DNA of 64,000 nucleotides from positions 354,981-418,980 of the forward strand of contig OY970314.1 of NCBI GenBank assembly GCA_963716475.1, read 5' to 3'. Position 1 is the stretch's first letter. Every line of letters begins with the position of its first letter. A program made the position numbers and the translations under genes. The notes beneath the pieces were generated by a model. It was not told the DNA's origin, did not search any database, and saw nothing but the letters and a program-made list of their open reading frames with translations. Positions 12,441 to 36,174 of this stretch are shown here, in pieces. The stretch is from Candidatus Woesebacteria bacterium. GTDB taxonomy: Bacteria > Patescibacteriota > Microgenomatia > UBA8517.

Positions 12441-12460
12441 ATAAACTAAGCGATTGCTAA

Positions 12461-12514
12461 GACAAGATACACTTACCAGGGCTCTGGCTGGCCAAGCTTC
12501 GCTTATCTCGGCCA
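12461..12514 (-). repeat. composite intergenic repeat (copy A) carrying two GTAAGCGAAGC(T/A)TGGCC cores, upstream of tRNA-Phe
   Basis: About 85% identical to 55941..55993. Core also shared with 13074..13097 and 37446..37469. Confidence 0.6.
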
Positions 12515-12665
12515 AAAACCTTTTAATAATAAATATGCAATTCCAAGTAATAATAAACCGCCAAAAATCTTTAAAAGAAAGATAAATTCAGGAAAATCCA
12601 AAAAGAAACCGATTATTTTCCTCCAAATTATAGCTACCCAATAGTCATCTTTTCCCATATTCCGG

Positions 12666-19054: not shown

Positions 19055-19138
19055 GCCGAGGTGGCGAAATGGTATACGCAAGGGCCTTAAGAGCCCTCGA
19101 GTGCATAACTCATGCGGGTCCGAGTCCCGCCCTCGGCA
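19055..19138 (+). tRNA. tRNA-Leu(TAA); integration target (attL) of the downstream element
   Basis: GCCGAGGTGGCGAAATGG...AGGGCCTTAAGAGCCCT with a long variable arm then GCGGGTCCGAGTCCCGCCCTCGGCA. The 3' end is repeated at 35858..35886. Confidence 0.75.
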
Positions 19139-20723
19139 CAATACGGGATTCCTGATCGGCAAAGACCCGATTTTGCCATACATACGACATATTCTCAGGT
19201 CCGATCCATTTATTGTTTTCCATCACACTGTTTTGAGCTTCCTTGAAGTATAGAAACACGTTATTCGGTTTAATTTCAATCTTTTTGTCCTTTATTTTCA
19301 GGTCCGATCCGATTATTTTCAAAACCATCTCCCGAGTGTAAGCATCGCCAGTATCAAAAATTTTTAGTACATTCTTTGAGAAGTTTATCGCATTGTCGAG
19401 AACCTCTCCCCACATGGCAATCCTCTTGCTTGTTTGTTGTTCCTTGAGTACCTGCTCACGCATCAATAATTTCGACTTTTTGGCCTCATAGGTATCATTA
19501 TCAATAATTCCGTCTATTTTCATTCCATAGAGTTTTTCCTTTCTTTCGTCAATGTCATTAAGTTCTTTTGTGATTGATTCTCTTTGTTTTATTGAAAAGT
19601 TAAACTCCTCATTGTTCCGGCGTTTCAGGACTTTTCTGAAGTATTCGGCAAACTCGGGATTAAGTTGTAGTTGGGAAACATATTCTCTGATTTGTTTTTC
19701 AAGATCTGCTGCCCTCAGGTACTTCGAATCACAAGGACCCTTTTTCTTCGTACAGTGATAATGAGTAAATATATGAGAAGTTCCATTCTTATAATGTTTG
19801 GTTTTTCTCTCTCCTGTTATGGACGCGCCACAGGGACATTTGAAGATTCCCAAATAAGGGATTGGATCAACCAAAGAATTGGGAGATCCGGCGTTCTTTG
19901 AATCAAGAAGCTTTTGAACCCTTATAAACTCAGACATTGTTATCATTGGCTTATGTATTCCTGGGTAAGTTGTTCCAGAATAGACAAAGTTACCGGTATA
20001 GAAAATGTCCCGAAAAAATCTGAAAGCCACAGTCCTAGATATAGGATTGCCCTTCTTCCCGGTAAGTGCCATTGAGTTCATCTTTTTGAGTATCTGTGGG
20101 ATCGTATAGTGCCCTGTAAGCATCATCTCCCACGCTTTCCGACAAAGACTCCATACTCTTTCATCAGGAACAATATACCTTGCCCCCTTCGGGAATTGAG
20201 GAGTATTGGAATAACCCAAAGGTGCGTTACCGGGATATTCTCCTCGCTCTGCCTTTAATTGAAGTCTGGCTTTGATAATCTTGCTTAATTTGTTTGAATA
20301 CTCTTCATTGAAAAGACTTTCGACACCTGCTTTGAGAATGTTATTTGTATCATAGACGTCGGTCGGGGTTATGATTAGAAGTTTTCCTTGAGTGATAAGG
20401 TCCCGGCAAATACCGTTCTCTTCGCCATTTCTTCCGATCCTGTCCATATTCGAAGTGACAATCGTATCTACTTTGCCCTTCTTGACCAACTCGATCATCT
20501 TGAAAAACTCAACTCTAACATCAGCCTTCCAACCGGTTTTTGCTTCTATAAATGGAGGCGCGATTAGTTTGATTCCTCTGTCCTGAATGATTCTTTTGCA
20601 GATAGTAAGTTGATCCTGAAGCGATAATATCTGCTTATTTTTATCCTCTGAACTCTTCCTACAATAAATGACACCTTGCATATTACCTTCTTCCATAATT
20701 GTCCTTTCCAAGGGGGTTGTCAA
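19110..20723 (-). CDS. large serine recombinase (integrase)
   Basis: N-terminal resolvase domain with GVIYCRKSSEDKNKQ (catalytic Ser), a recombinase domain and the zinc ribbon CPCGASITG...HYHCTKKKGPCDSKY. Its 3' end overlaps the tRNA-Leu 3' end. Confidence 0.8.
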   Translation of the reverse strand: MTTPLERTIMEEGNMQGVIYCRKSSEDKNKQILSLQDQLTICKRIIQDRGIKLIAPPFIEAKTGWKADVRVEFFKMIELVKKGKVDTIVTSNMDRIGRNGEENGICRDLITQGKLLIITPTDVYDTNNILKAGVESLFNEEYSNKLSKIIKARLQLKAERGEYPGNAPLGYSNTPQFPKGARYIVPDERVWSLCRKAWEMMLTGHYTIPQILKKMNSMALTGKKGNPISRTVAFRFFRDIFYTGNFVYSGTTYPGIHKPMITMSEFIRVQKLLDSKNAGSPNSLVDPIPYLGIFKCPCGASITGERKTKHYKNGTSHIFTHYHCTKKKGPCDSKYLRAADLEKQIREYVSQLQLNPEFAEYFRKVLKRRNNEEFNFSIKQRESITKELNDIDERKEKLYGMKIDGIIDNDTYEAKKSKLLMREQVLKEQQTSKRIAMWGEVLDNAINFSKNVLKIFDTGDAYTREMVLKIIGSDLKIKDKKIEIKPNNVFLYFKEAQNSVMENNKWIGPENMSYVWQNRVFADQESRIVPRAGLGPA

Positions 20724-20892
20724 TAGACTGAGTATTTAGCTCGGACCTGTCGAGTGATTCAAGAAACATAATCATTCGGGATGCCTGATCCTCACATTCT
20801 TCAAGTGTCAAATCAAGGTTGTAACATTTCTTGCAAAGCGCCTGAAATTCAAGAACTTCTTCGTGGTTTAGGTAGCCTGTTAGATATCTCAT
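20683..20892 (-). CDS. small hypothetical protein immediately upstream of the recombinase (candidate directionality factor/regulator)
   Basis: 69-aa ORF with position-based inference only. Confidence 0.25.
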   Translation of the reverse strand: MRYLTGYLNHEEVLEFQALCKKCYNLDLTLEECEDQASRMIMFLESLDRSELNTQSIDNPLGKDNYGRR

Positions 20893-20899
20893 TTTTTTC

Positions 20900-22642: not shown

Positions 22643-22643
22643 T

Positions 22644-23063
22644 TTAATGTTTTGAAATTGAGCGTTTGCGTTCCAAAAGAACGCTTTCTACCATCTCTAC
22701 CCGTTGGTTCAGATTGGAGGCTTCTAGGGCCTTTAGGATGTGGCTGGCGAGGTATCCTACGGTGTTAGCGATATTTGGGGGAATCTCACCGCTCCGGACG
22801 CCATTTATCGTGCTTTCAAGAAGGGTGGCCACTTCTGTCGGGTCTTTAATGCTTAGTGGTTCAAGATTCAGTTCAACCTTTTTACTGGCAAGGCCACCTC
22901 TGACAAGCGCCATATGTCTTTCGACTTCTACGTCTGGATTGTGGACAAAACAGTACACGCTCCCTTTCATGGATGCGGCACCGCATTGATCTCCGTTTTC
23001 TTTTATATAACTGCATTTTTTCTCTTCCATATAAGTTACGCTTATGGGGTGTACCCCCCTCAA
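22644..23063 (-). CDS. hypothetical Cys4 (zinc-finger-like) protein
   Basis: CSYIKENGDQCG...CFVHNP gives four Cys in the N-terminal 40 aa. Confidence 0.35.
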   Translation of the reverse strand: MRGVHPISVTYMEEKKCSYIKENGDQCGAASMKGSVYCFVHNPDVEVERHMALVRGGLASKKVELNLEPLSIKDPTEVATLLESTINGVRSGEIPPNIANTVGYLASHILKALEASNLNQRVEMVESVLLERKRSISKH

Positions 23064-23143
23064 ATTTGATATACTATTGTTTAGTTCTTTTTGCCTCCTA
23101 GTGGGTTCAGTTCCTAGTAGATTGACTAGGAGGCAATACAGAA

Positions 23144-23707
23144 CTACTCCTTTGTTATAAAAGGAGATTCCCCGTCAAAGATAAGATCCAGGTTGATCTG
23201 CTCTAAACGCTCATCAACCAGTTTTTGCATTTCCTTTGACAGCTTTACCTTTGGTTGGGGTAAAAGGGAATACTTAACGTCCATAGGGGAAGTCCCGTTT
23301 GTACGAGTGATCGTTACATCGTAGTCACGAAGATCTCCCCACGCTTCTGAATCCTCAAGACCTTTCATAAGCCTCTGCAATCCCGCTTGGGTCAACTCAA
23401 GGATCTGAACGTCTCCAAGTTCTTTATTTAAAACGACAAACATCCAAAAATGCTTTCCTCTGTTGCGCGGATCCGTTGCATTTCTTATCTCATCCGGAAG
23501 CTCATCGTATGTTCTAACACGAATTGGAGTTCTCTTTTTACCTTCTTCTTTCCAGTATTCAAAACCAACGATTGCGTTAGTAAGAACCCTGAAAGTGCTA
23601 TCGCCTTCATCAAACTTCATGTAGGCTGATCTGCTTTTTGGCATTTCATAGTCTTTGGGTAATATGCTCATATTTTTCTCACCTCCTTTCCGCTGTATAA
23701 AAAGCAA
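23144..23707 (-). CDS. hypothetical protein
   Basis: 187-aa ORF with no confident family. Confidence 0.35.
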   Translation of the reverse strand: MLFIQRKGGEKNMSILPKDYEMPKSRSAYMKFDEGDSTFRVLTNAIVGFEYWKEEGKKRTPIRVRTYDELPDEIRNATDPRNRGKHFWMFVVLNKELGDVQILELTQAGLQRLMKGLEDSEAWGDLRDYDVTITRTNGTSPMDVKYSLLPQPKVKLSKEMQKLVDERLEQINLDLIFDGESPFITKE

Positions 23708-24033
23708 TACTTATTAAATTGAACTGAACTTTCTAATTTGAGCTGGTCCTTAACGGTCCAGGGTTCCGAGACGCCGAAGAGTGCTTCAATGTTGTTGATT
23801 AGAGGAAATATTACTTCAGCCTTATAAAATTCATGTTTTGGTTTGGAGCTTCTGATATAGGGAAGTGTGTATTCACAAAAGCTTTTGAACGTCTTTGTTG
23901 AGATAATTTTGTCAAATTCAATATATATTTTTGTGACATTTTCATTCTTGATAACAATTGCGTCAGCGTTCCTGTGGCAATAAGAACTAAGTACCTCGTC
24001 GCAGTTTACAAATTTGGTTACTAGGTATTTCAT
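23668..24033 (-). CDS. hypothetical protein
   Basis: 121-aa ORF overlapping its neighbours by a few codons (operon-like). Confidence 0.3.
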   Translation of the reverse strand: MKYLVTKFVNCDEVLSSYCHRNADAIVIKNENVTKIYIEFDKIISTKTFKSFCEYTLPYIRSSKPKHEFYKAEVIFPLINNIEALFGVSEPWTVKDQLKLESSVQFNKYCFLYSGKEVRKI

Positions 24034-25730
24034 ACGGGTTCGACCTCACTTTCTACAGGAAACATATTTTGTGATGCCTCCACGCCTTTCTGTGGCTGAA
24101 TGGGAGCATCGGAAGCACGGGAAGCATCCTCCGAGTTGCCAGCATGGTCTGTGTTTGTATCTGGCAACTTGTCAGCTACCCGTTGATTTGCTCCCATTGC
24201 CTCCATGCTTCCATTCTGGGGCTGGTTTTTCATGGAGGCATTTTCATTTACGGAAGCATTTTTTGTTTTCTTGAGGGTGATCGTGTTATTGGTAATTTCC
24301 TCGCCGTGGGTTACAGATATGCCCATCGCCGCAAGATTGGTTTTAATAAGATTTATCTTTCTCCAAAGCCATGTTGCAGATTTAGGGAACCCGTAACTTC
24401 CTCCAACTTCGAGTTTGTCTGCTGTAGCAAGTTTGGATAGTTCGGTAAAAAGGTCTGAGCTTGCCCCTGACCAGTCGTTATGGATTGACATAAACTCCAG
24501 AATTGTTTGGGCGACAGGGGAAGCGTCAATTGCAGCCTTATTTTGTCTGGCAATATTCTTTTCAAAAGCCTGTAAAAATCCATCAACTTCATATCCCAAA
24601 GAAACAGCTGCTGCGGCAGCTACTCTAGCGTAATCAGCCATACGGGGTCTGGTAGGAAGTTTAATATCCTCCTTAATCTTTAGAACCTGAGAAGCTATGT
24701 CAAAGAGGGCTCCAAGGATCTGGGGTTTTTCTTTTTCAAAATCATTCCAGAATTTAGTTTCTTCTCTGCGGTTTGAGTCACTGATTCTTTCAAGAGTAAA
24801 GATCAAACTTCGGTCAAGCAAATCAGCCTTCTCGGCTACCAGGTTTATTCCGTTTAGTCCAACTGCCACCAATAACTCAAATATAATATCGGAATCATCT
24901 GAGAATAATTTCCGTTTTGAAAAACCTAAACCTGTCACAAACCCGGATAAAGAATCCGAGCCTTCAGTTGAGAGGTAACTTAAATTATCAAAATACAGAC
25001 AATAATGGTGACTTGCCATTTGTGTCAGTTCATCTATGGCAGACCTCATCTTCAGTAGGTCAACACGGGAAGGGTCAATTAGCTTTCTGATGACACGGAG
25101 AAGGGTTGATTTCGCGCTGCCTTGCTCTCCTGTCGCGATTATCATTGCCCGAGGGATATCGCAGAAGAGAATAGCCACAAGATAAGTCAAAAACAAAATC
25201 TTGTCCTCGGAGTTTTTGAGGTTAACATACTCGAGTATTTTGCTCAATGCACCGCCTTTTTCAGGAATAGACTGAACCTTTTGATGAGTAAATCGTCGAA
25301 ATAGCGGCGCTTTTGCTTTTACAACTTCCCAGCCTGAGGGAGTTATCTCAACAATGTTGACGTCATCTCCAATATCGTAGGAGATAGTTTCCTCAATTTT
25401 AGCTATGCGATTAAAGAGTGATATTTTTATGCCTTCGTGTTGAGATTTTCCTTCCAATGCAGCCATAGCCTGAGAAAAGATTTCACTGGAAAAACCTTCA
25501 TTAAAAGCTTCCCAATAAACTCCTGAAACCCATCGTCTGAATACCGCACCGGAAACGGAGTAACCAACCGCGGGCCTATCTGGTAACTGTACTTGGGGTT
25601 CGCCAAATTGATCCAAAAAGAACTTGCAACCTCTCTTTAGCACCAGTGTTATCAATATGTCGCCAACTTTCTGCTGTTTGACTAATTCATTAGCCGCTTT
25701 GTCGAGTACTTCTTTATTTTTAGCTTTCAT
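24030..25730 (-). CDS. P-loop NTPase of the phage/plasmid primase-helicase (D5/VirE/P4-alpha C-terminal) type
   Basis: Walker A IIATGEQGSAKSTLL and Walker B HHYCLYFDNL. Lies immediately downstream of a CHC2 primase zinc-finger gene. Confidence 0.55.
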   Translation of the reverse strand: MKAKNKEVLDKAANELVKQQKVGDILITLVLKRGCKFFLDQFGEPQVQLPDRPAVGYSVSGAVFRRWVSGVYWEAFNEGFSSEIFSQAMAALEGKSQHEGIKISLFNRIAKIEETISYDIGDDVNIVEITPSGWEVVKAKAPLFRRFTHQKVQSIPEKGGALSKILEYVNLKNSEDKILFLTYLVAILFCDIPRAMIIATGEQGSAKSTLLRVIRKLIDPSRVDLLKMRSAIDELTQMASHHYCLYFDNLSYLSTEGSDSLSGFVTGLGFSKRKLFSDDSDIIFELLVAVGLNGINLVAEKADLLDRSLIFTLERISDSNRREETKFWNDFEKEKPQILGALFDIASQVLKIKEDIKLPTRPRMADYARVAAAAAVSLGYEVDGFLQAFEKNIARQNKAAIDASPVAQTILEFMSIHNDWSGASSDLFTELSKLATADKLEVGGSYGFPKSATWLWRKINLIKTNLAAMGISVTHGEEITNNTITLKKTKNASVNENASMKNQPQNGSMEAMGANQRVADKLPDTNTDHAGNSEDASRASDAPIQPQKGVEASQNMFPVESEVEPV

Positions 25731-26338
25731 ATTTGTAATTTGCTAACAATCTCCATAAATCCCATTTCCGGGTTAGTCTTTTGCATAAAATCGATTGCAT
25801 TGTTGCCATGGGCGGCACAGCCAAAACAGTGCCATGAACCATTCGGATAAATGTAAAAAGAAGGATTACGTTCTTCGTGGAATGGGCAAGCTACACGAAA
25901 CTTGCAACCACACGGCCTTGCGTCAGGAATCAAATCTTGAGTCGGGTACTCCCTTGCTTTTTGGACCTTGGCGCTGGTAGTATATTTAACTCCTGGTTCA
26001 TAGCCGGAGAGCCGTAGCCAGTATTTTAACCACTTTTTAAAGTTTTCTTCATGTAGTTCGACTGAACATTCCAACACTTTTTTGTGAAAATCGCTGAGGG
26101 GTTTGGCAGTTTTTATTTCGGCAAAAAATTTTTCCCTATCTGCATACAGTTCTTTAATTTTGGCTACGGCAACATCTTCGACGCAACTCTTAAATTCTGG
26201 TTCAATAGGAATGTACCGCGGTGGATTTGTTACTTTCCTTTTGAATTTAAGTGGGAAAGCCGTGTGGTTTATAACGAGTTGAGGTTGGCTATCCATAAAT
26301 TTGTTCACTGAAACCCAATCGATTCGAGATGTTTTCAT
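25727..26338 (-). CDS. CHC2-type primase zinc-finger protein
   Basis: C-terminal CPFHEERNPSFYIYPNGSWHCFGCAAHGNNAIDFM matches the DnaG/primase CHC2 zinc finger. Confidence 0.6.
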   Translation of the reverse strand: MKTSRIDWVSVNKFMDSQPQLVINHTAFPLKFKRKVTNPPRYIPIEPEFKSCVEDVAVAKIKELYADREKFFAEIKTAKPLSDFHKKVLECSVELHEENFKKWLKYWLRLSGYEPGVKYTTSAKVQKAREYPTQDLIPDARPCGCKFRVACPFHEERNPSFYIYPNGSWHCFGCAAHGNNAIDFMQKTNPEMGFMEIVSKLQI

Positions 26339-26345
26339 AATTTCT

Positions 26346-26612
26346 TTATGTTTGTTGATACAATTTGTCCTTTAATTGTTTTATTGCCATCACAAATTTA
26401 CGAACATCAACCATAGACTCCGGTGAGTCCTCCGATGAATAATTGAAGTTTTGAAGTAATCGCTCACGTTCTGGAGTATCTAAAAAAACAAATTCGGAGC
26501 GTCTTGAATCAGTACGATCTATGTTGACAAGTTCCAACCCTTTGGTAAAAAGGAAAGCCGCAACATAAAAGTTGCTTGTTTTAAAATATCTGTCGTCACT
26601 TTTATCCTTCAT
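26346..26612 (-). CDS. hypothetical protein
   Basis: 88-aa ORF with no motif. Confidence 0.3.
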   Translation of the reverse strand: MKDKSDDRYFKTSNFYVAAFLFTKGLELVNIDRTDSRRSEFVFLDTPERERLLQNFNYSSEDSPESMVDVRKFVMAIKQLKDKLYQQT

Positions 26613-26943
26613 ATGCGATTAGTCCTAAAAATTCGATGGGTGTCGCGGATTCCAATAGATACTCGCCGTTTTCTTCTCGGAGGATCTCTGAAAAAGTCAG
26701 ATGATTTGTATCAAGAAACCTCTTCTTTCGATAGGCTGCTTTTATTAAATCTCTAATCTTGTTATTCAGAATATTGTTTACGAAAGTCGAGGCTGAAGCG
26801 TACATGGGATTAAACAGATTGCCCTTAAGCCAAAGGTGAATCCGAAGTTCCTGGGCAACATCTTCCCAGTCCATATTGGGAACCTGGGCCTTGATGGCCT
26901 TTGCTACGATAACATTCTCATATTTAGAAAAAATTATACTCAT
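26602..26943 (-). CDS. sigma-70 region-2-like protein (minimal ECF-like sigma factor; no region 4 detected)
   Basis: DWEDVAQELRIHLW...FNPMYASASTFVNNILNNKIRDLIKAAYRK resembles ECF sigma region 2. Confidence 0.4.
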   Translation of the reverse strand: MSIIFSKYENVIVAKAIKAQVPNMDWEDVAQELRIHLWLKGNLFNPMYASASTFVNNILNNKIRDLIKAAYRKKRFLDTNHLTFSEILREENGEYLLESATPIEFLGLIAYEG

Positions 26944-27148
26944 ATCTATTGAAGGACTCTTGGAGTGGTTGAGGCCAATAAAAAAGGGCTCTCAATCAAC
27001 CCCAATATGTCCATAATTCATATTGGAATCAATTGATAGCCCTTCTTATCGCTACCTGGGTTAGCCTTGTTAGCTAACTATGTAAATTATACCATAAAAC
27101 CTAAAAACTTTTCGGGTTTTTATCCCCTCTATAGTAATATACGACAAT

Positions 27149-29074
27149 TCATGCACCCCAACCCCAATCAATTTCCCTGTAGTTAATATTTTTACACCTG
27201 GGACATCGTGCCGATAGGGTAAGGTTCCCATAATTTAGCTTTACCTTTATGGGAATTTGATTCGCCGTCCACAGGCTGACCACATTATTATGCGCGAACT
27301 TATAAAGCGTTCTTTCTCCACAAAAATCGCACTTCCACTCACCAACTTTAATTTTTGACCAGTCTTGCCCAATATCCAAGGCCCCAGATTCAATCCTTGC
27401 TAAACACTCATCACAAATAGGAGTATCCGAGACCTGACTATCACCGTGTTGTTGATGTCTAATTACCGGTTTTGCTCTACATACTCTACAGAACAGAAGC
27501 TCCATTTGGAATTCAATATCGGAAAGCTCAGCGCCCTTATTTTGCCAGTGCTGAGCGTTCTTGTGGACCTTTTGATATTCCTTGTTATAGAAATCTAGCT
27601 GTTTTTCTCTGGTCAAAGTTTTTAATTTTTCGCTTCGCTTAGACCAAAAAAAATTGCCAAAATTATGCTCCTCATCCCAAGCTTTGTTTTCTTTTTCCCT
27701 TATCTTTTTATGACAGACTTCAAGTATTTCCCATAACTCTCTTTTTAGGTCACTAAGCCTGAAGTCTATGGCATTATGTATTTCGCTTTTAACAAAAAGT
27801 TCATAATCCTCCTTTTTGGCCTCCTCGGAAGTAATTTCCTTCTTTTGCAGCTTCTGCCATATTTCATCGTCCCAAAGACTAAGAAACCCGCGTTTATTTT
27901 CAGCTAATTCTTTCGTGGCTTGTCGTAAAACCTGTTCAACTGATAACTTGGTATTCGGGTCCAGGTCGTCGATTGTTAAACTTTCCTCAAGCTCGATTGG
28001 TCTAACACCGTTGGCAATAAAGTGCATATCTCCATACCTTTTTTCATAATCCTTTAGTTCTTCCTCGAAGCCCTTAATTCTAGTTTGTACTTCATCATCG
28101 GCAAACTCTTTGTTGTCCGCCTTCGCTGCCCATATCTTAAAACCCAAGACGGTTGCCCAAATTGATTTCGTTTCAGTTCCGTGGACATACTCGCTTTTTG
28201 GTGCAAGGTATGGACGAATACCCCTATCTCCATAAAGTAACTCAAAGATGGGTGGCAATTTTTTACCAAATACAGCCTCCGCGACCTCTAAAACTAGGTC
28301 ATAAACTGTATATAGCTCCTGGGCTAGCATTGCACCACCTTTAAATAAATCCCTTCGCCATTGCGGATGAAGATGGATGTAGTAATACCAATTTTCAAGC
28401 GGGTCAATCTGGATAGCAACTTCAGCAATTGTCTTCAAAAGGACGTTGAGATCGGATTCAGAAAGCGAATACTTCTTTAATAATTCTGGCCTACCTTTAA
28501 TAAGTGAAGTATCAAAATATAATTCCGGTGCACCGTTAAAATGCCGTTCCTTGTACCGGCTAAATCTTTGGTACCTCGAACTTTTAAGAGAGTGGAGTAG
28601 TCTCAAAAAATTATTAAAATTTACACATAGATCAACCACATTATTAGGAAACGATTTACTACCCCTCTTGGCAATTGTTATGTTGAAAGCAAATCCAGAA
28701 GCCCCCCAACTAACCATTCTGAACGCTTGTTGTTTGTAAAAGTCTAAATCCTCATTGACCCAAAGTTTTCCTTCGTGAACTTGGTTTTTTGACAACGCGG
28801 TAATTATAAAAATTTGATGGGGACTATAATAATTAACTAAAGCTCCTTTTTCTGCCCCATTTTCGTGAACTTTTTCTTTAACCTGAAGTAGTGGTTCTAA
28901 AAACCCATCGGATTCTGCTGCTCTTAGAAAACTCTCATCTACATTGTTAATTTTTTCAGTGCGGGAGTAATCATATTTACAGAACTCTATAAAAGATTTT
29001 TCCGAAAGTAACTTCTCCTTTATAATTTCAAATGGATATTTATTCTCATCTTTAGTACTCATATTTATATTCAC
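27149..29074 (-). CDS. hypothetical 641-aa protein with C-terminal multi-zinc-ribbon module
   Basis: CRVCRAK...CDEC, CDFCGERT and CPRCKNINY CxxC pairs in the last 120 aa. Confidence 0.4.
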   Translation of the reverse strand: MNINMSTKDENKYPFEIIKEKLLSEKSFIEFCKYDYSRTEKINNVDESFLRAAESDGFLEPLLQVKEKVHENGAEKGALVNYYSPHQIFIITALSKNQVHEGKLWVNEDLDFYKQQAFRMVSWGASGFAFNITIAKRGSKSFPNNVVDLCVNFNNFLRLLHSLKSSRYQRFSRYKERHFNGAPELYFDTSLIKGRPELLKKYSLSESDLNVLLKTIAEVAIQIDPLENWYYYIHLHPQWRRDLFKGGAMLAQELYTVYDLVLEVAEAVFGKKLPPIFELLYGDRGIRPYLAPKSEYVHGTETKSIWATVLGFKIWAAKADNKEFADDEVQTRIKGFEEELKDYEKRYGDMHFIANGVRPIELEESLTIDDLDPNTKLSVEQVLRQATKELAENKRGFLSLWDDEIWQKLQKKEITSEEAKKEDYELFVKSEIHNAIDFRLSDLKRELWEILEVCHKKIREKENKAWDEEHNFGNFFWSKRSEKLKTLTREKQLDFYNKEYQKVHKNAQHWQNKGAELSDIEFQMELLFCRVCRAKPVIRHQQHGDSQVSDTPICDECLARIESGALDIGQDWSKIKVGEWKCDFCGERTLYKFAHNNVVSLWTANQIPIKVKLNYGNLTLSARCPRCKNINYREIDWGWGA

Positions 29075-29136
29075 AAAAAAACCCGTTTATCACGGGCAGT
29101 GTAATATCTGTATTTTACGCCTTTCCAAATAAAACG

Positions 29137-29997
29137 CTACTTAGCTGGAGATGCTTTATTCAAAAATTCTGAAATAATATTTACCGGAATTATTACGCCA
29201 AGGTTTTGATAGTTGCCAGTTAAAACAGCTGAAGGAATTCCAACCATGCAATCATTTTGATCAACAGCAAGCCCTCCTGAATTTCCATTATCTATATTGG
29301 CAGACGTTAGGATATCCCCATCATCAGAAAAACTACTTATGATTCCGTCTGTAATGGTTAGATTGTATCCGCCACTTGTAACTGGATAACCATAAATCCT
29401 AACTGCGTCACCCAATTTTGGACTATTGTTTTTGCAACTACTAGGGAACACAAAAGCAGAAAAAGTTTTAGGGTAGGTACCCCAAACCTTCCCGTCCGAA
29501 TCCTTATAAGCAGAGGTTACTACCAATACTGCCATATCATATTGCTTACTCAATTTAGGAACAATATATGGCTCTGCATTGTAGATTTCAGCGGGGGCAC
29601 CAGTATTTGGGTCAGGCAAGCTAACCAAACAGCCTTTTGAACCAGCTATAACATGATTGTTTGTTAATATCGTTCCGTCCGTTAACCATATTGTTCCTGA
29701 TCCTCCTTCTTTGTTATCGCAAAATACGTTGACAACAGAAGATGCTACATTATACGGTACGGTCGGGCTAGGTGACCCACCAGACGGTGTGTTGGAATTG
29801 GGAGAATTTTGAGAGTAGGCAATTATAAAAATTACCAATAGTATTAAAAAAACTAAAATTAATCCCTTTCTACGTTTAATCCACCCGCCTAAACGGTACT
29901 TCAATCTTGAGAGTCTCCTCCATACGATTTTCTGCCCACAATTCGGGCAGAATCTTTCATCCGACTTAATTTGATTGCCACAATTTTTACAATACAT
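29137..29997 (-). CDS. N-terminal zinc-ribbon + TM + trypsin-like (S1) serine protease
   Basis: MYCKNCGNQIKSDERFCPNCGQ zinc ribbon and a TM helix. Candidate S1 triad motifs LTNNHV (His), DMAVLVV (Asp) and GNSGG (Ser). Confidence 0.55.
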   Translation of the reverse strand: MYCKNCGNQIKSDERFCPNCGQKIVWRRLSRLKYRLGGWIKRRKGLILVFLILLVIFIIAYSQNSPNSNTPSGGSPSPTVPYNVASSVVNVFCDNKEGGSGTIWLTDGTILTNNHVIAGSKGCLVSLPDPNTGAPAEIYNAEPYIVPKLSKQYDMAVLVVTSAYKDSDGKVWGTYPKTFSAFVFPSSCKNNSPKLGDAVRIYGYPVTSGGYNLTITDGIISSFSDDGDILTSANIDNGNSGGLAVDQNDCMVGIPSAVLTGNYQNLGVIIPVNIISEFLNKASPAK

Positions 29998-30008
29998 AAT
30001 AAACTTTC

Positions 30009-30383
30009 TTAATCCTCTCTCATTCCGATTGTTGGAACAAAGCGCCCTATGTTATTAATAAGGTATATTGGCGTAAGAAAAAAAGAAATCATACCCCACC
30101 ATCCAAGGAAAAGCGTAGTTAGAGTCCTCTTTTTAAACTCACGATTTATACATTTTTTACAAAGATTGCCTTTTATAGACGAACTCTGACGCATAACCAG
30201 CATGCCTATATTTTGGTAAAACTCGACATATTTTGTTGGAGTAAGGCTGCCACACACCTGACAATGGTTATTAGTCGGTCCAAAAACCGGCGAAGAGGGA
30301 TTATTCTTATTAATTATTGTTCCACAATGCTGACAGAAGTTGTTGCTTTTAGGATTGCTTTTTCCACATTTTTCGCAGAACAT
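30009..30383 (-). CDS. zinc-ribbon membrane protein (paralogous N-terminal DZR-like domain)
   Basis: MFCEKCGKSNPKSNNFCQHCG plus further CxxC pairs and a C-terminal TM helix. Confidence 0.45.
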   Translation of the reverse strand: MFCEKCGKSNPKSNNFCQHCGTIINKNNPSSPVFGPTNNHCQVCGSLTPTKYVEFYQNIGMLVMRQSSSIKGNLCKKCINREFKKRTLTTLFLGWWGMISFFLTPIYLINNIGRFVPTIGMRED

Positions 30384-30509
30384 AATCTTTGAGAAATTTG
30401 CCTAAACTACCCCCAAATTGAATTGTACTCTAAAAATAAATCCATTTCTTAGATTTTATTGAAAAATAGGTGTAGAATCAATTTGGTTGGGTAGTCTAAA
30501 ATAAATAAT

Positions 30510-31133
30510 ATGTACTGCAGTAATTGTGGGAAACACAACTCCGAAGGCAGTAAGTTTTGCGAACACTGTGGCTCACAGCTTATAAAAGACTCTGCAGAAA
30601 ATAAATCCGTTAGCCAGGCTAAGGCTGTAGTTGATCCCCCAAAAACAGAAAATAAGGAGCCTTTGCCAAAAGATAAAAAAGTAAATGCTGGACTTGGGGG
30701 CTGGTTGGCATTAGTTGGACTAGGAATGATCGTGGGGGTTGTTTGGCAAAGCTACAGCATATTTGGATATTTTTCCTATTTATCAAATACTTATACTATT
30801 CCTGGTTACTCAAGTCTTTTATGGTTTGAGTTTTTAATAGGAGTCGCCTTTATAGGTTCTCTTGTTTATCTAATCTATTTATATTTCAAAAAGAAGAAGA
30901 ATTTTCCGAAATACTATGTTTTTTATTTAATCGCCTCTATAGTTTTTGCATTATTGGATTGGCTCTGGGTAGCTTCATTACAGGCTCCGACTCAAGAACT
31001 TCAAAAAATACTAAACGACACGGTAACGCAAAATTCAAGCAATGTATCCCGAACCGTAGTGCAATCAGTAATTTGGATTTTGTATATGTTAAAGTCGAAA
31101 CAGGTTAAGGCAACTTTTATTGAAGATAAATAA
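30510..31133 (+). CDS. zinc-ribbon membrane protein (paralogous N-terminal DZR-like domain)
   Basis: MYCSNCGKHNSEGSKFCEHCGS followed by 4 TM helices. Confidence 0.5.
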   Translation: MYCSNCGKHNSEGSKFCEHCGSQLIKDSAENKSVSQAKAVVDPPKTENKEPLPKDKKVNAGLGGWLALVGLGMIVGVVWQSYSIFGYFSYLSNTYTIPGYSSLLWFEFLIGVAFIGSLVYLIYLYFKKKKNFPKYYVFYLIASIVFALLDWLWVASLQAPTQELQKILNDTVTQNSSNVSRTVVQSVIWILYMLKSKQVKATFIEDK

Positions 31134-31141
31134 ACTAAACT

Positions 31142-31741
31142 ATGAAAATTATTAAGCAAGTCGTCTATGTTGTAGCAGCGCTGGCAGCATTCGGTTTGGT
31201 CAGGTGGGGTATTTCAGCTCTTCAAACTAACAATGCCAGTAATAACACTGCCAATTATTTTACAAATGAGACTTGGCAACCATTTAACTCAACAGAAGGC
31301 GGTTTTAGTATTAACTTTCCTAAATATCCAACAACCAATCCCTCAGAAACCCAAAGCACGGGTGGTGTGACCTACGTTTCTACACAATATAGCGCCGAGG
31401 GCAGTGACGGAGATAGTTATGTTGCTATTTACGGTTATTACCCAAATCTTTTATCAAATAAATACAATGCAAAAAGTGGAATTGAAGGTAGCATTAACGG
31501 TATGGTTAGCTCAGATAAATCGAACCAGTTAATATCCTCAAACTTTGTGAATGTCGGTAGCCATCAGGGAGCGGATTACGTAATTTACAATAAAGACGTG
31601 GCTTCTTATTTGAGAGGAAGAGTAATTGTTGTTTTAGAAGGAAGTAATCCTGTCAAAATATATATCCTCATGGATGCGTCAAAAAACGCAAACGCCACAG
31701 ACAACTATACAAAATTTATTAACAGTTTTGAGATTCAATAG
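31142..31741 (+). CDS. secreted hypothetical protein
   Basis: Signal/TM N-terminus with a Ser/Asn/Thr-rich body. Confidence 0.4.
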   Translation: MKIIKQVVYVVAALAAFGLVRWGISALQTNNASNNTANYFTNETWQPFNSTEGGFSINFPKYPTTNPSETQSTGGVTYVSTQYSAEGSDGDSYVAIYGYYPNLLSNKYNAKSGIEGSINGMVSSDKSNQLISSNFVNVGSHQGADYVIYNKDVASYLRGRVIVVLEGSNPVKIYILMDASKNANATDNYTKFINSFEIQ

Positions 31742-31742
31742 T

Positions 31743-31762
31743 TAGTGAGTTGGAGTGGGGGG
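31743..31762 (+). repeat. intergenic motif TAGTGAGTTGGAGTGGGGGG (copy 1 of 4)
   Basis: Same motif at 32688..32709, 34949..34965 and 35753..35770, all in plus orientation. Confidence 0.5.
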
Positions 31763-31807
31763 TATTTCTTAGGTTTTCCTGAAAAAGTGGTGTAAAATCG
31801 ACTTGTT

Positions 31808-32671
31808 ATGAGTAAAGGGAAAGCTCGAACCAAAAAATCTCAAAAAGTTAGCGAAAAAACCACTATTTTCTCCACTTCGGCAAAGTATCTAATGGCCATA
31901 ATTGTTGCTCTTGGTTTTGTTGCGGCATTTTCTGTATATGCAAAAGCCCAATTGGAAAAAAGTCCTTTTCTCGCAAGCCCAACACCAATTGCTCTCCCCA
32001 CCTTCACACCTATCCCCGTGACACCCACGCCTACAGTTGATCCTAACCCGATAATTACCTGCAATATCAATGTCAGTTGTGGGGGTGGTTCAAAACAATT
32101 GAGACAGAGTGTCTGTAACAACATGATATGTTGCCTCTACAGTACTGAGTGCGGTGGGCCAAAATTTGTAGCAAAGAGTCAATGTCCTGCGAACGGGACA
32201 TGCTGCCAGGTTGGAAATAAATGGACTTATTACTTATCGAAAGATAAGTGCACACAGGATCAAAATGCTTACAATTCCAGTGTCAACCAAAACAATAACA
32301 CTTATATTCCGTCTACCTATACGCCACCAACCTACTATACGTGTACCCTTTATTATCCCGCATTAAAATTATATCAAACATACACTTCACTTTATAAAAC
32401 AAAGGCTGAATGTGATTCCGCCCAGGCTTCTCTCAACCAAGGTTCACAAACGGTTCAATATACAGCTCCCACAACAGCTCCATACCAAGCTCCACAAATG
32501 ACCAAAAGCCAGTGTCAAGCAAGTGTAAATGATAAATATGGGAGTCTTATGCGCAGTTATGGGTGCTACTATCCGTGCCCGGCCACCGGAGACTGTGGAA
32601 GCTCCTCAGTGTGTGAAGCTTATTGGTATCAAGCTCAAAAAGACATGAACAGCTGCAATCAATATCCCTAG
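31808..32671 (+). CDS. secreted Cys-rich, Pro/Thr-linker protein
   Basis: N-terminal TM segment, a PT-rich linker and more than 25 Cys. Confidence 0.45.
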   Translation: MSKGKARTKKSQKVSEKTTIFSTSAKYLMAIIVALGFVAAFSVYAKAQLEKSPFLASPTPIALPTFTPIPVTPTPTVDPNPIITCNINVSCGGGSKQLRQSVCNNMICCLYSTECGGPKFVAKSQCPANGTCCQVGNKWTYYLSKDKCTQDQNAYNSSVNQNNNTYIPSTYTPPTYYTCTLYYPALKLYQTYTSLYKTKAECDSAQASLNQGSQTVQYTAPTTAPYQAPQMTKSQCQASVNDKYGSLMRSYGCYYPCPATGDCGSSSVCEAYWYQAQKDMNSCNQYP

Positions 32672-32687
32672 CTCGATCTATTTTATA

Positions 32688-32709
32688 AATAGTGAGTTGG
32701 GTTGTGGGG
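32688..32709 (+). repeat. intergenic motif AATAGTGAGTTGGGTTGTGGGG (copy 2 of 4)
   Basis: See 31743..31762. Confidence 0.5.
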
Positions 32710-32726
32710 TTATTGTGTTTTAAAAG

Positions 32727-34892
32727 TTAATCAATAAACTCATCTAGTATTTTTAAAGCTTCTTCGGTCAAATTTTCTTTATAACTAGGTATTTCTATAT
32801 TAAATTTTTGAAAATAAATCTGATGAATAAACTTTATTAACTTCTCATCTAAATAACCGTGCGTATGAAGAGATGAGCTCTTAGCATCCTTTGACCTAAA
32901 ACCATTTAAAAATAACTTACCCATACCACAATATATGACAAAGATTTCGGTTAAAATCTCATTTTCCTGCTCGTCGTCAAGTGTAATTTTTTCCTCATGA
33001 ATTAAAATATAGTGTGCCAATTCATGAGCCAAAATATACCCAAACCCAAATGGGTCTTTTGTGAATAATTTTGGGATACTAATTTTTGAACCAGAAATAA
33101 AGCCTCCGATTCCTTGTTCCTCGAAAAACTTTGACTCTGCCATTTCTACGTCTGGTAAACTTTTCAGGTTTAGAATACGACCCAAATAACGCAGCGCCTT
33201 AAATGGATCACCCTCTTTAAGCATTGAGTAAAAAGCCCCATCTGGTTCAAAAACTGTTATCTCTTTGTTTTCCAGGACTGCATTAAGATAATTAAATTGA
33301 TTTAATACATACTGGCGAATATCTTTACCTTTTATCCCAATTTCAAATCCAGTACCACCAAAAGAAAATGTGTTCCCTTTTTGGACAAATAATTTTTGCC
33401 CACTTTCTGAATATGCCTCTAAACCTATTTCCATATCTGCTCCGACATTAACCCTTATTTCAATAACTCTGTTATTCAATGCTTGAATTTTCCATACGTT
33501 AAGGCTTTGAAAAACGTCCCCCTCTTTTGTAGTTAGGTGGATTTCCACAAATTTTGATTTGTTCTCACCTGTTATCTCGAATGTGTGATTCTTGGATGTC
33601 GGAATTGCTGAATCTTTTCTTGTCATTTCTATAAATTCACCGCCAGACAACCTTACAAGAATAGAAAATGGAATAACTTCAAGAGCAAGAAAATTTGTTA
33701 CCTTACCGGTTAGTACTCTGGAATAATTAAAAGCTCCTATAGCGAGTAATTTTTCATTTCCAAAAGCCACACCTGCTCCGACAAAAGCTTTATGAACAAG
33801 CTCTTTTATGCTTTGTTGAATAAATGAATCGCCAAGAATAATTATGCTTTCGAAATTTTTCTTTTTCTCTACTTCAAATATCTCAGAGGCCAACTTCTCT
33901 ACTGATTTAACCAGATCGTCAAAAGTCGTGGCCAAAAAGTTATGAAGTGCGCCCAGGTTAATTTTTGTATCAAGAGTTTGAAAGCTTCCATCTTTACATA
34001 GGACAAATGGTAGATTTAGCTCATATGTTTCCTCAACTTGTGACGTTTTCAGAAATTCATTGACTGCGTCTAAAATCCGTACAATATTTTTTGGGTCTTC
34101 TAACGCGAAGTTGCGAGAATCTTTGCCAATCTCGGAAATAAAAAAATCGAGCACAGTTTGCTCTATTTTTCTTCTAGTGATTGTATTTGTATATTGAGTG
34201 CCTATTGTGTACAAAACACCGTCTCCATAATTAACCAATGATACGTTTGTGTTGTCCTGGGATATAGAAACAAAAAGATATTCTGTACCCCTGTTTTTAC
34301 TATCGTTTTTTGGTTTCTTTGAAAATAATTTTTTGTATAACGGAAGTCTCGCATATTTTTGGATGGCTTGACGATCAAGATTTTTTTTCTGTTCTTCGCG
34401 GCTCAAACTCCCATGGTTCAATCTTACAAGCAAGCTGTCAATATTAGATTGACCAAAGAAGGCCGCCGGTTGGGACATTATTCTTATATCTTTTACTCCA
34501 ATTAAGGAAAAGGCTCTCTCTATTAAACTATGCCAATAATAATATTTATCATAAGGAATGGTTATACAAACATTATCAATTCCATCGTCGGGGAGATAGG
34601 TTTTGATTTTATTTAATATAGATGCAAATATAACTGCCAAGCACCTTTCAACACTTATTTGTTCCTTATCAATAACTACACCGTTCAATTCAATAATCTG
34701 GTCCAAATCATAAATTAAACTATTCTTTTCGGTAAGAAATTTATTAAAACCTTCATCGCCCGGAAAAACTTTACCGTTCACAAAAGCTAAAATGTTTCTA
34801 ACTTCATAAATTTTACAATTATCAGGATCTATTCCATTGACCAAGAACGCAGCTTTTGTGGTTTTTGTATTGAAATCAATTCCAATATTCAT
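32727..34892 (-). CDS. DnaK-like Hsp70 (nucleotide-binding + substrate-binding domains) fused to a C-terminal ImmA/IrrE-type HExxH metallopeptidase domain
   Basis: Hsp70 signatures in order: IGIDFNTKTTKAAF, ITIPYDKYYYWHSLIERAFSLIGVKDIRIMSQPAAFFG, ILGDSFIQQSIKELV, and SBD-like LEVIPFSILVRLSGGEFIEMTRKDSAIPTSK. C-terminal LAHELAHYILIHEE. Confidence 0.55.
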   Translation of the reverse strand: MNIGIDFNTKTTKAAFLVNGIDPDNCKIYEVRNILAFVNGKVFPGDEGFNKFLTEKNSLIYDLDQIIELNGVVIDKEQISVERCLAVIFASILNKIKTYLPDDGIDNVCITIPYDKYYYWHSLIERAFSLIGVKDIRIMSQPAAFFGQSNIDSLLVRLNHGSLSREEQKKNLDRQAIQKYARLPLYKKLFSKKPKNDSKNRGTEYLFVSISQDNTNVSLVNYGDGVLYTIGTQYTNTITRRKIEQTVLDFFISEIGKDSRNFALEDPKNIVRILDAVNEFLKTSQVEETYELNLPFVLCKDGSFQTLDTKINLGALHNFLATTFDDLVKSVEKLASEIFEVEKKKNFESIIILGDSFIQQSIKELVHKAFVGAGVAFGNEKLLAIGAFNYSRVLTGKVTNFLALEVIPFSILVRLSGGEFIEMTRKDSAIPTSKNHTFEITGENKSKFVEIHLTTKEGDVFQSLNVWKIQALNNRVIEIRVNVGADMEIGLEAYSESGQKLFVQKGNTFSFGGTGFEIGIKGKDIRQYVLNQFNYLNAVLENKEITVFEPDGAFYSMLKEGDPFKALRYLGRILNLKSLPDVEMAESKFFEEQGIGGFISGSKISIPKLFTKDPFGFGYILAHELAHYILIHEEKITLDDEQENEILTEIFVIYCGMGKLFLNGFRSKDAKSSSLHTHGYLDEKLIKFIHQIYFQKFNIEIPSYKENLTEEALKILDEFID

Positions 34893-34948
34893 TTTTATTG
34901 GTATTTAGAGGGCTTATGTGAATCTTAGCATCTGGGGATAAAAATAAA

Positions 34949-34965
34949 CAGTGAGTTGGAGTGTG
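34949..34965 (+). repeat. intergenic motif CAGTGAGTTGGAGTGTG (copy 3 of 4)
   Basis: See 31743..31762. Confidence 0.5.
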
Positions 34966-35015
34966 TATTCCAAAGATTTCTCCAAAAAAAGCATAGACTC
35001 TGGAAATGAATGGAA

Positions 35016-35726
35016 TTATGAAACAAATCTTATCTCAGCACCGTTTTTAATATATTTAGTAATGGTTGGTATTCCTCGTGTCTCTCCGAAAGAATCTGTA
35101 TAAATGTCCCCACCACCTTGGCGTTCAACCTCAAAACCTAAATTTTTATAATCCTCATCTTTCAAATCCCAATAACCAAAGGGGAAATCAAATAATATTG
35201 TGGGTTTCACTTTTTTATGAAAGTCTTCGTAATGTTCTTCTAAATATGCCGTGATAACGCGTGTATATTCACCACCTTCTTTTTTGATAGTTCTGTCTAC
35301 GACTCCTAGTTCAAGATAATCCTTCATTTGATCTTCGTCACCGGCCACTACTGCAGAAAATATATCGTTTTTACTGGACTCTGGTAAATAAATATCTGTA
35401 CCTCCAGAATTTTGGACAATAAAAGCATCTTCGCTGGCTAAATACACCAATTTAATAAACGCCTTCTGTGATATATTTCTATAATAATCTTTCCTCCATT
35501 TGGTTACTTCTCCCTTTGACCATTCCTTTACCGGTTTACCTTCTAATCCACTCTTAATACCAGATATTTCTGCAAATAACTTATTTTGATAAATAGCATT
35601 TGAGGCTTCTATAAAAAACTTATGTGAAGGTGTGGAGCCCCTATTAGCCTCAAGTTTTTTGATACGCTTGTCCAATACATAAAAGATATAATAAATAACT
35701 ACACCCACAATTACATAAGTCCACAT
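35016..35726 (-). CDS. hypothetical protein with N-terminal TM anchor
   Basis: 236-aa ORF with no motif. Confidence 0.4.
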   Translation of the reverse strand: MWTYVIVGVVIYYIFYVLDKRIKKLEANRGSTPSHKFFIEASNAIYQNKLFAEISGIKSGLEGKPVKEWSKGEVTKWRKDYYRNISQKAFIKLVYLASEDAFIVQNSGGTDIYLPESSKNDIFSAVVAGDEDQMKDYLELGVVDRTIKKEGGEYTRVITAYLEEHYEDFHKKVKPTILFDFPFGYWDLKDEDYKNLGFEVERQGGGDIYTDSFGETRGIPTITKYIKNGAEIRFVS

Positions 35727-35752
35727 ACTCGTATTTTACACCTTTATATGTA

Positions 35753-35770
35753 TAGTGAGTTAGGGTGAGG
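35753..35770 (+). repeat. intergenic motif TAGTGAGTTAGGGTGAGG (copy 4 of 4)
   Basis: See 31743..31762. Confidence 0.45.
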
Positions 35771-35857
35771 AATAAAGTCTCCGGTATTCGTTAAGTTCCT
35801 GAAGTTTAGAAGCTAGAATATCAGTCTCACTTGGAGTATCATTCAGATAGGCGAATA

Positions 35858-35886
35858 GGTCCGAGCCGAGTCCCGCCCTCGGCACA
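35858..35886 (+). repeat. attR-like direct repeat of the tRNA-Leu(TAA) 3' end
   Basis: AGGTCCGAG[CCGAG]TCCCGCCCTCGGCACA versus 19115..19140. A weaker third copy AAGTCCGAGTCCCGG sits at 35941..35955. Confidence 0.65.
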
Positions 35887-35961
35887 GTAAGTTCAAATTA
35901 CATAAATATTCATTTTAAACAATAAAATATAGCCTTGAATAAGTCCGAGTCCCGGAAAGAG

Positions 35962-36174
35962 TTAACCTTTGAAGTTTAAATCTTGGGCAAGCTGAGGCAA
36001 ATCTATCTTGGGAAGTTTATCTGTTTCAGCAGCGTAAGTTTGTAAATCTATTTTACCTTCGAGGTAATCTGCAGTTAATTGCCTCAGACTTCTTTCACCC
36101 GCATCTATTTCTTCAACTGTAACTCGGTGTTTCAGTACACCGATTCTTTCCAGAAGTCTTTCAGGCATTTTCAC
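35962..36174 (-). CDS. hypothetical small protein
   Basis: 70-aa ORF just outside attR. Confidence 0.3.
   Translation of the reverse strand: MKMPERLLERIGVLKHRVTVEEIDAGERSLRQLTADYLEGKIDLQTYAAETDKLPKIDLPQLAQDLNFKG

Follow-up and report, generated by a model that had tools for sequence, protein, structure and literature searches.

A bipartite asymmetric motif in integrative elements of Patescibacteria, most likely a docking site for a DNA-binding protein

Dispersed asymmetric protein-binding sites form a known class of signals in mobile elements. Iterons, for which R6K pi, P1 incC/incA and F ori2/incC may be named, are found downstream of repA/repE in P1 and F, and the origin next to (3' of) rep in the Staphylococcus aureus pathogenicity islands (SaPI), P4 ori/crr and SPP1 oriL/oriR offer further parallels to the arrangement described below. 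For the mobile elements of Patescibacteria (the Candidate Phyla Radiation, CPR), to our knowledge, almost nothing is known about replication, regulation and the gain of cargo. Another described case is that of the stoperators of cluster A mycobacteriophages, which are asymmetric, dispersed in short intergenic gaps and oriented in almost perfect correlation with transcription (PMC9283540). Here we report a motif in a 16.7-kb element which is integrated in a tRNA-Leu gene (19055-35889) of a Candidatus Woesebacteria bacterium (GCA_963716475.1); the window, that is the whole stretch of DNA that was analysed, comprises 64,000 nucleotides (positions 354,981 to 418,980 of contig OY970314.1, forward strand). 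Judged from sequence, the motif is best classed with the dispersed asymmetric sites just mentioned, and it is most likely a docking site for a DNA-binding protein rather than a promoter or an RNA signal. Its unusual traits are polarity along the element axis, occurrence in unrelated phages, and the fact that no reader was found.

The site covers about 25 bp and is bipartite and non-palindromic: an A-rich flank is followed by ATAGTGAGT (block 1), five to six unspecified positions and GGTGGGGTAA(A) (block 2). Over 31 aligned copies it holds about 35 bits of information, with a constant spacing of the two blocks, and shuffled controls gave only about 3 weak hits of its position weight matrix (PWM) per 336 kb. 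No dyad symmetry was seen in the site; a layout of 11+6+11 nt is present, the arms of which are alike only in the TA at their outer ends. The TAG, TGA and TAA of the motif itself close two reading frames, and copies within coding sequence, two in phage open reading frames (ORFs) included, always stand in the remaining one. A full-text literature search with the motif strings returned only 16S rRNA sequences and primers, and no account of the motif was found.

With the pattern TAGTGAGTTGGRKTGKG and up to two mismatches, four matches were obtained in the window, all on the plus strand, at 31743, 32690, 34949 and 35753, where shuffled sequence leads to an expectation of 0.04 and none of 100 shuffles reached four. 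The 8-mer core AGTGAGTT is confined to these four copies within the window, PWM scans revealed no further copy there on either strand, and blocks 1 and 2 scanned singly showed no enrichment elsewhere in it. A first-pass annotation of this DNA, made by a model from the sequence alone, had already pointed out four plus-strand copies, and its description of them as beyond chance, intergenic, indifferent to the orientation of neighbouring genes, asymmetric, outside any hairpin and confined to the element is borne out for the 64 kb; two details needed correction, since the second copy starts at 32690 instead of 32688, and the site, taken as 17-20 nt long, is judged from the relatives to extend over about 25 nt, since a second block, GGTGGGGTAA, is conserved as well.

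Copy 1 (31743..31767, TAGTGAGTTGGAGTGGGGGGTATTT) lies between a 199-aa and a 287-aa gene, both on the plus strand, beginning 2 nt past the stop of 31142-31741(+) and ending 40 nt short of the ATG at 31808. Copy 2 (32690..32714, TAGTGAGTTGGGTTGTGGGGTTATT), which is the closest of the four to the family consensus, is placed between the convergent 287-aa (+) and 721-aa (-) genes, 18 nt past the stop of 31808-32671(+) and 12 nt short of that of 32727-34892(-). Copy 3 (34949..34973, CAGTGAGTTGGAGTGTGTATTCCAA; block 2 degenerate) is enclosed by two minus-strand genes, with the start of 32727-34892(-), the 721-aa gene, at a distance of 56 nt and the stop of 35016-35726(-), a 236-aa gene, at 42 nt. 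On the other side of the 236-aa gene, whose start is 26 nt away, copy 4 (35753..35777, TAGTGAGTTAGGGTGAGGAATAAAG) shows a block 2 that is either degenerate or carries a 2-nt insertion; it is separated by 88 nt from the repeat attR, the right attachment (att) site. The last four intergenic gaps before attR hold one copy each, the copies are 0.8-2.3 kb apart, and each neighbouring pair encloses exactly one gene, on either strand. Four copies in 4 kb is the highest motif density of any element examined. No convincing sigma-70-type promoter or intrinsic terminator was found in the four motif-bearing gaps.

Copies 1 and 2 fit the full consensus and score level with the copies in related elements, while copies 3 and 4 are without most of block 2. 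In an alignment of 157 nt around each copy, about 25-30 bases are common and the flanks are unrelated; because the flanks beyond about 30 nt do not align, the four regions are not segmental duplicates of each other, an origin which had been named as one of two outcomes that would dissolve the observation. The spacer, where little information is held, is 0.79 identical among the window copies, compared with 0.42-0.67 inside other elements and 0.48 between elements, therefore the window copies probably arose from one another by local duplication. Of the earlier suggestion of a short mobile repeat, the sense of a miniature inverted-repeat transposable element (MITE) fails, as only about 25 nt are common, and the part that stands is local copying, to which the shared spacers point.

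To collect relatives of the element, its hallmark protein was used as query. It has 23 homologs of 30-51% identity in uncultured Patescibacteria (e.g. Levybacteria), and the contexts of the homologs amounted to about 40 loci, numbered here with the prefix L. Related loci share a triad of genes, for the hallmark protein, a sigma-like protein and a DUF5659 protein, followed by primase/helicase genes and usually a serine recombinase gene; on the evidence of gene content, this triad defines a family of Patescibacteria integrative elements, whose cargo is variable and placed beyond the hallmark gene. The motif was found in the window and in L005/L006, L015/L028, L016, L022, L029, L030, L034 and L036. 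These motif-bearing elements diverge, with a hallmark identity of just 34-46%, and the presence of the motif is patchy over the hallmark-protein tree. No copy is present in the 47 kb of the window that lie outside the element, and none in the flanking host DNA of the loci; the comparison with the density in the genome that the first-pass annotation had proposed, applicable to about 80 kb of host DNA only, gave zero. Repeat searches for variant motifs in the motif-negative relatives L004, L011, L013 and L014 gave nothing convincing.

The relatives show a more complex arrangement than the window. Five elements (L005, L015, L029, L030 and L034) carry an inverted pair, with a minus copy at x and a plus copy at x+20, and in two of the five a third copy follows at x+62 on the plus strand, i.e. 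42 nt on. This cluster is situated inside the last ~100 nt of the genes of one ATPase/primase family, which we call "H-type". The C-terminus of the H-type protein, ...LGLTRQEILQKH...PMLETAGLIxQE.D..DKRKMLIYPTA, gives a weak winged-helix match (HTH_27) and then runs into a variable tail; the left arm of the pair translates as IYPTAxxTI and the right arm or arms as NSExxGGV. The inverted pair is foldable as a long imperfect hairpin, in which both arms keep the same two blocks and the spacers show no covariation. Since the arms keep the consensus and the spacers do not covary, protein binding rather than RNA structure is indicated for the pair.

Outside the cluster, single copies are met at two kinds of places. 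One stands beside the core promoter in L005, L016 and L036, and in L005 it is 12 nt upstream of the -35 box of a canonical TTGCTA-N17-TACAAT promoter; canonical promoters of the form TTGAnn-N17-TAnAAT precede the core operon in relatives. The cargo region of relatives has 1-3 single copies, which often stand 0-5 nt from a stop codon or close the cargo operon on its outer side. Taken over 9 elements, each of the 26 copies is directed away from the 3' end of the helicase gene. Orientation to the nearest or downstream genes is mixed, about 12 copies being co-directional and about 10 not, and the distance from motif to start codon ranges from 7 to more than 300 nt; the distance to sigma-70-like -10 boxes is variable too. 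The window cargo genes for a trypsin-like protein, a double zinc ribbon protein and a DUF2569 protein are homologous to the motif-bounded cargo of L005.

Clustering of all ORFs was used to ask which gene goes with the motif. Its best correlate is the H-type helicase, present in 6 motif-bearing loci vs 2 without the motif, and the next best is a protein of 175-181 aa encoded just downstream of the cluster (4 vs 0). The sigma-like protein, which the first-pass annotation had considered as a reader, is unlikely in this role, and so is the DUF5659 protein, because L004 has both (84% and 86% identical to those of the window, respectively) and no motif in 21.9 kb; the arbitrary orientation of the copies and their variable distance to start codons speak against the sigma-like protein as well. 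A tie to the helicase type of the window was tried and rejected: L037-L039, with a helicase 92% identical to that of the window, share the genes from helicase to recombinase, are without the hallmark gene, the sigma-like gene and the cargo block, and carry no motif.

The motif is not restricted to these elements. In an exact-pattern scan of 2.9 million viral contigs 11 hits were obtained, about 8 of which also fit the consensus positions that the pattern leaves unspecified, scoring 30-40 with the PWM. L054 holds an independent inverted pair, offset by 21 nt; in L053 a copy comes just after the major capsid gene, and in L050 a copy lies about 700 nt downstream of an ORF with a terminase domain and upstream of an operon which ends in the major capsid gene. 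A copy of perfect consensus occurs inside a phage ORF of L046 (10856-10880). In the stretches examined, motif-bearing phage contigs and elements have only DNA methyltransferases in common, and no relatives of the hallmark protein were found in viral contigs. A scan of the viral contigs for inverted pairs (TTACCCYACC-N38-52-GGTRGGGTAA) gave 3 unrelated G-block palindromes without block 1, and the search there for the H-type helicase gave only the distant L058, whose single weak PWM hit (12.5) is near the level of shuffled DNA. The signal is used by several kinds of mobile DNA, presumably of the same host lineage, and the occurrence of the motif in unrelated kinds of mobile DNA leads to the possibility of a host-encoded reader. 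As a side observation, free-standing HNH homing-endonuclease genes (NUMOD3-HNH and HNH_3-AP2, at 9979-10467 and 12073-12528, minus strand) flank the motif-bearing ORF of L046.

Some likenesses to known sequences were also noted. The plus strand resembles the 5' strand of helix 11 of 16S rRNA, where TAGCTAGTTGG|TGGGGTAAAGG of 16S corresponds to TAGTGAGTTGG-ATGG-TGGGGTAAAG of the motif, as shown for example by window 32690-32714 and L046 10856-10880. The minus-strand reading CAACTCACTAT resembles the T7/T3 promoter core and the arm-type site of lambda Int, and it matches 9 of 11 bases of the T7 promoter from -11 to -1. These likenesses may be coincidences.

Taking these results together, we read the motif as a probable double-stranded-DNA recognition site for a sequence-specific DNA-binding protein of Patescibacteria integrative elements, tentatively of iteron or operator type, and the likeliest single form of it, which we prefer with the same reserve, is an iteron-type replication site. 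A duplex-DNA protein site is suggested by the high information, the fixed spacing of two blocks, the phased inverted and direct copies of the cluster, the use of either strand and the tolerance of coding sequence; a protein-binding site had also been among the options of the first-pass annotation and is the one we favour, as a prediction from sequence. The iteron-type form is favoured because a cluster in the 3' end of a primase/helicase gene with a winged helix parallels the known systems. The motif shares with iterons an asymmetric two-block site of 17-25 bp and, in the relatives, the phased inverted and direct copies at or inside the 3' end of a replication gene, the further copies kilobases away, and a replication protein with a C-terminal winged helix, which is here a weak match. 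In such a scheme, the cluster would be the origin or control region of the element, bound by the C-terminal domain of the H-type helicase, and the outlying copies would be secondary binding sites. In the window element, the replication module would have been replaced by one with another helicase and only the outlying copies retained; these probably increased in number locally, in step with the addition of cargo genes by recombination at the conserved sequence, which is suggested by the similar spacers, the one-gene spacing and the lower G+C of the block.

A number of observations weigh against an iteron-type site. The copies of the window are not tandem as classical iterons are, being single and 0.8-2.3 kb apart, and neither the H-type helicase nor its neighbour genes occur in the 64-kb window, so that no cognate initiator or other binder was found in cis. 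Since L037/L038 are without the motif, the replication module of the window's own type does not need it. H-type-related L013/L027 hold only a degenerate copy. The same site occurs in unrelated phage contigs, and no H-type helicase was found in the stretches of them that were examined. A uniform polarity of the copies relative to the cluster is a further difference from iterons, the sites were not accompanied by a visible AT-rich unwinding element, and the density of DnaA boxes within 200 nt of a copy (0.31 per kb) does not exceed the overall one (0.38 per kb).

Part of the evidence would also suit a stoperator-like operator, at which a repressor of the element, possibly a monomer with two DNA-binding modules, would form an orientation-dependent roadblock or insulator against outward transcription and thereby silence or insulate the cargo and the host flanks. 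As with the stoperators bound by L5 gp71 (PMC9283540), a temperate element has non-palindromic sites scattered through it, mostly in short gaps and in the window at a rate of about one per kb, their orientation switches between the halves of the genome and one copy is at the core promoter, here in L005, L016 and L036. Most cargo-side copies follow a co-directional stop codon or end a cargo operon at the element border (L005 4924, L015 749 and 6990, L022 122, L034 5183, window 31743 and 32690), in gaps without intrinsic terminators, and the inverted pair could block transcription both ways. However, the site has 25 bp instead of 13 bp and 3-4 copies instead of 20-30, and its orientation does not follow transcription: of the 22 copies scored, about 10 run antisense to the gene closest to them, among them window copies 3 and 4 and those in the phages L050 and L053. 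What is more, no repressor gene co-occurs with the motif. Searches with Pfam/PHROGs and BLAST found no repressor with a helix-turn-helix (HTH) and a second DNA-binding domain common to the motif-bearing elements, and the small HTH genes beside the hallmark gene differ among elements, with none in the window. We consider such an operator unlikely but credible. The mixed orientation bears in the same way on the proposal of an element- or phage-specific promoter, read on the plus strand by the sigma70_r2-like protein or on the minus strand (CAACTCACTAT) by a T7-like polymerase. The sigma-like gene belongs to the conserved triad, in the minus reading, window copies 3 and 4, L005 9941, L016 7848, L050 and L053 precede genes by 26-83 nt, and in the plus reading, window copy 1, L015 6990 and the helicase-tail copies likewise precede genes; either reading nevertheless fails for about half of the copies, and the distance to the start codon, from 7 to more than 300 nt, is not that of a promoter. 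A contiguous site of ~23 bp is common to the T7/T3 promoters and the motif, but transcription from half of the copies would be antisense, C-rich sequence takes the place of AT-rich sequence in the upstream half, and there is no such polymerase in the element, since no RNA-polymerase domain was found in its proteins and the hallmark fold matches only helical bundles. The sigma-like protein, for its part, is region 2 only and cannot explain a bipartite site of 25 bp, its 84% identical counterpart in L004 goes without the motif, and canonical sigma-70-type promoters exist in the relatives. A promoter is thus given very little weight by us, and an RNA-level signal, such as a processing site, the end of a small RNA or a mimic of 16S rRNA helix 11, still less, being extremely improbable. 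For an RNA-level signal, the resemblance of the plus strand to the 5' strand of helix 11 and the U-G wobble pairs of the inverted pair, possible on the sense strand only, can be adduced. Against it, no covariance model of Rfam 15 matches the motif even at E<=1, no conserved structure exists around the solo copies, the arms of the pair do not covary, and with an arbitrary strand the RNA would carry a G-rich or a C-rich version. Ends of small transcripts, which had been an option of the first-pass annotation, find no support either, in the lack of an Rfam match and of a conserved structure or flank. Neither a hairpin nor an intrinsic terminator (G+C-rich hairpin with a U tract) was present at solo copies, and the RfaH/ops antitermination signal, which takes a 12-nt ops element on the non-template strand of the 5' leader and a NusG paralog, was rejected, as the likeness is partial (GCGGTAG, few copies) and the Pfam results of the elements include no NusG/KOW domain in any of them.

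The array in the window invites another explanation, that the motif is a recombination site at cassette junctions, where single cargo genes are inserted or exchanged in an array like that of integrons or dif modules. Adjacent window copies enclose one gene each in either orientation, all are direct repeats, they share their spacers as duplicates would, the array abuts the element end, the G+C of the block (0.34-0.37) falls below that of the remaining element, and the 11+6+11-nt layout recalls the core sites of tyrosine recombinases; moreover, homologs of the Hsp70-like gene in the array sit in other contexts, so this gene moves. Single-gene cassettes in either orientation and short direct repeats near the end of a platform are indeed shared with integron attC and Xer-dif modules (pdif modules and arrays of integrative mobile elements exploiting Xer, IMEX). 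Yet attC is an imperfect palindrome of 57-141 bp with R''/L''/L'/R' boxes, whereas here about 25 nt are common, and the window shows neither an inverted partner nor a copy on the minus strand; the arms of Xer/dif sites, two of 11 bp around a 6-bp centre, are partly palindromic, unlike those of the motif; R/L boxes and dyad symmetry are missing, and among the ORFs of at least 70 aa Pfam finds in the element neither an integron integrase nor another tyrosine recombinase, only the serine integrase, which uses the tRNA site. Homologs of the cassette gene (Hsp70-like) elsewhere are without the motif, in relatives, operons of several genes and 5-6 kb are enclosed by the copies and the cluster falls within a gene, and neither an empty nor an alternative layout of the cassettes came to light, the block recurring in just one other contig, which is identical. 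A cassette junction is for these points distinctly unlikely, in our estimate, though still credible, and two further ideas are rated lower again. According to one, the motif functions only with the H-type helicase, and the window copies are decaying scars of homologous exchange between co-resident elements. This would fit the absence of the H-type module from the window, the degenerate block 2 of copies 3 and 4, the homology of the window cargo to the motif-bounded cargo of L005, and the patchiness on the hallmark tree, as predicted by mosaic exchange; relics would, on the other hand, hardly be expected where copies 1 and 2 score as well as those of relatives, where the density is the highest of any element, with four in 4 kb, and where the copies are strictly intergenic and uniformly oriented, and the chance that it is right seems slim. 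Equally slim seems the other one, in which the motif would be the polar signal of a cargo-capture platform, with genes inserted or swapped at a 25-bp origin or control site without an integron-type integrase, or a polarity signal like Ter or the FtsK orienting polar sequences (KOPS), read by a translocase of the host or the element. Tus-Ter and RTP (replication terminator protein) systems likewise have asymmetric sites of about 23 bp, oriented to fork movement, and the copies here all face away from what would be the origin; however, no protein like Tus or RTP came up, and several successive sites within a few kb of a putative origin would be unusual for terminators. If such a polar signal were true, the unrelated phages and the helix-11 likeness would point to a host-encoded reader shared across the mobile elements of the lineage.

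With regard to its use, a motif of 35 bits is a probe for its reader protein, could locate the origins or control regions of these elements and could flag related elements in metagenomes. If the copies were cassette junctions, they would represent a new way of building cargo arrays; should they prove to be initiator or repressor sites of the usual sort, the annotation is useful but unsurprising, and an ordinary initiator or regulator site is the most likely outcome.

The element itself is delimited as follows. The tRNA-Leu(taa) gene (19055..19140, +) contains attL, in which the 21-nt repeat CCGAGTCCCGCCCTCGGCACA at 19120-19140 marks the left end, and attR (35866..35886, +), an exact 21-nt copy of the tRNA-Leu 3' end, marks the right end; because the 3' end of the tRNA is repeated exactly and the gene of a serine recombinase abuts the tRNA, the DNA between is regarded as an integrated element. 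This large serine recombinase, the integrase (19110..20723, -), has Resolvase, Recombinase and Zn_ribbon_recom domains. Its ORF overlaps the 3' end of tRNA-Leu, an att identity of 21 nt is unusually long for a serine integrase, and a second, partial att repeat, GTCCGAGTCCCG, was seen at 35943-35954. The motif is not a fragment of att, as the att repeat is a different sequence (the tRNA-Leu 3' end) and copy 4 is 88 nt away from it; in L005, L015 and L016, no direct repeats link the distal motif copy to the integrase end. Just past the recombinase end of L034, a group I intron (Rfam RF00028, 51 bits) is located at 18479-18780 on the minus strand.

On the minus strand, the core of the element consists of the genes for the hallmark protein, the sigma-like protein, the DUF5659 protein, the CHC2 primase-like protein, the 566-aa helicase and several unknown proteins, and then the recombinase. 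The Sigma70_r2-like protein (113 aa, 26602-26943, -) has region 2 only, and the DUF5659 protein (88 aa, 26346-26612, -) completes the conserved triad. In the replication module (24030..26338, -), the CHC2 primase-like protein has 203 aa, and the 566-aa helicase belongs to a different, widespread family as compared with the helicase that bears the motif cluster in relatives; a possible degenerate remnant of the motif, AGTGAGGTCGAACCCGTA, is placed at the 3' end of the helicase gene (24033..24050, -), weak and below the PWM threshold. The opposite end of the element is cargo: a trypsin-like protease, zinc-ribbon membrane proteins, a DUF2569 protein, the 199-aa protein and then three single genes. 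Between copies 1 and 2 is cassette A (31808..32671, +), encoding a Cys-rich, membrane-anchored or secreted protein of 287 aa without a Pfam match; between copies 2 and 3, cassette B (32727..34892, -) encodes an Hsp70-like ATPase of 721 aa with a C-terminal HExxH (HELAH); and between copies 3 and 4, cassette C (35016..35726, -) encodes 236 aa with an N-terminal membrane helix and no Pfam match. Homologs of the Hsp70-like protein are 43-66% identical, and their neighbours are, in L040, a type I restriction enzyme together with a Cas4-like protein and, in L042, RadC, which suggests that the Hsp70-like/HExxH gene is a defence-island gene carried as cargo. The idea that the motif travels with this cassette was rejected, for four homologous loci in other contexts are without it; because of these homologs, the motif is assigned to the element backbone and not to the Hsp70-like gene. 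The cargo block as a whole (31000-36000) has a G+C of 0.34-0.37, compared with 0.38-0.43 in the flanks and elsewhere in the element, and the low G+C of this motif-bearing block is consistent with later acquisition.

The hallmark protein (641 aa, 27149..29074, -) ends in C-terminal Cys4 zinc ribbons, and its AlphaFold model (predicted local distance difference test, pLDDT, 81) has only helical bundles as structural neighbours, which is uninformative. Before its gene, a hairpin with a T-run (GCCCGTGATAAACGGGTTTTTTT, 29081-29097, -) ends about 10 nt ahead of the start codon; it is conserved in L004, just upstream of 10001, and may be an attenuator or an operator.

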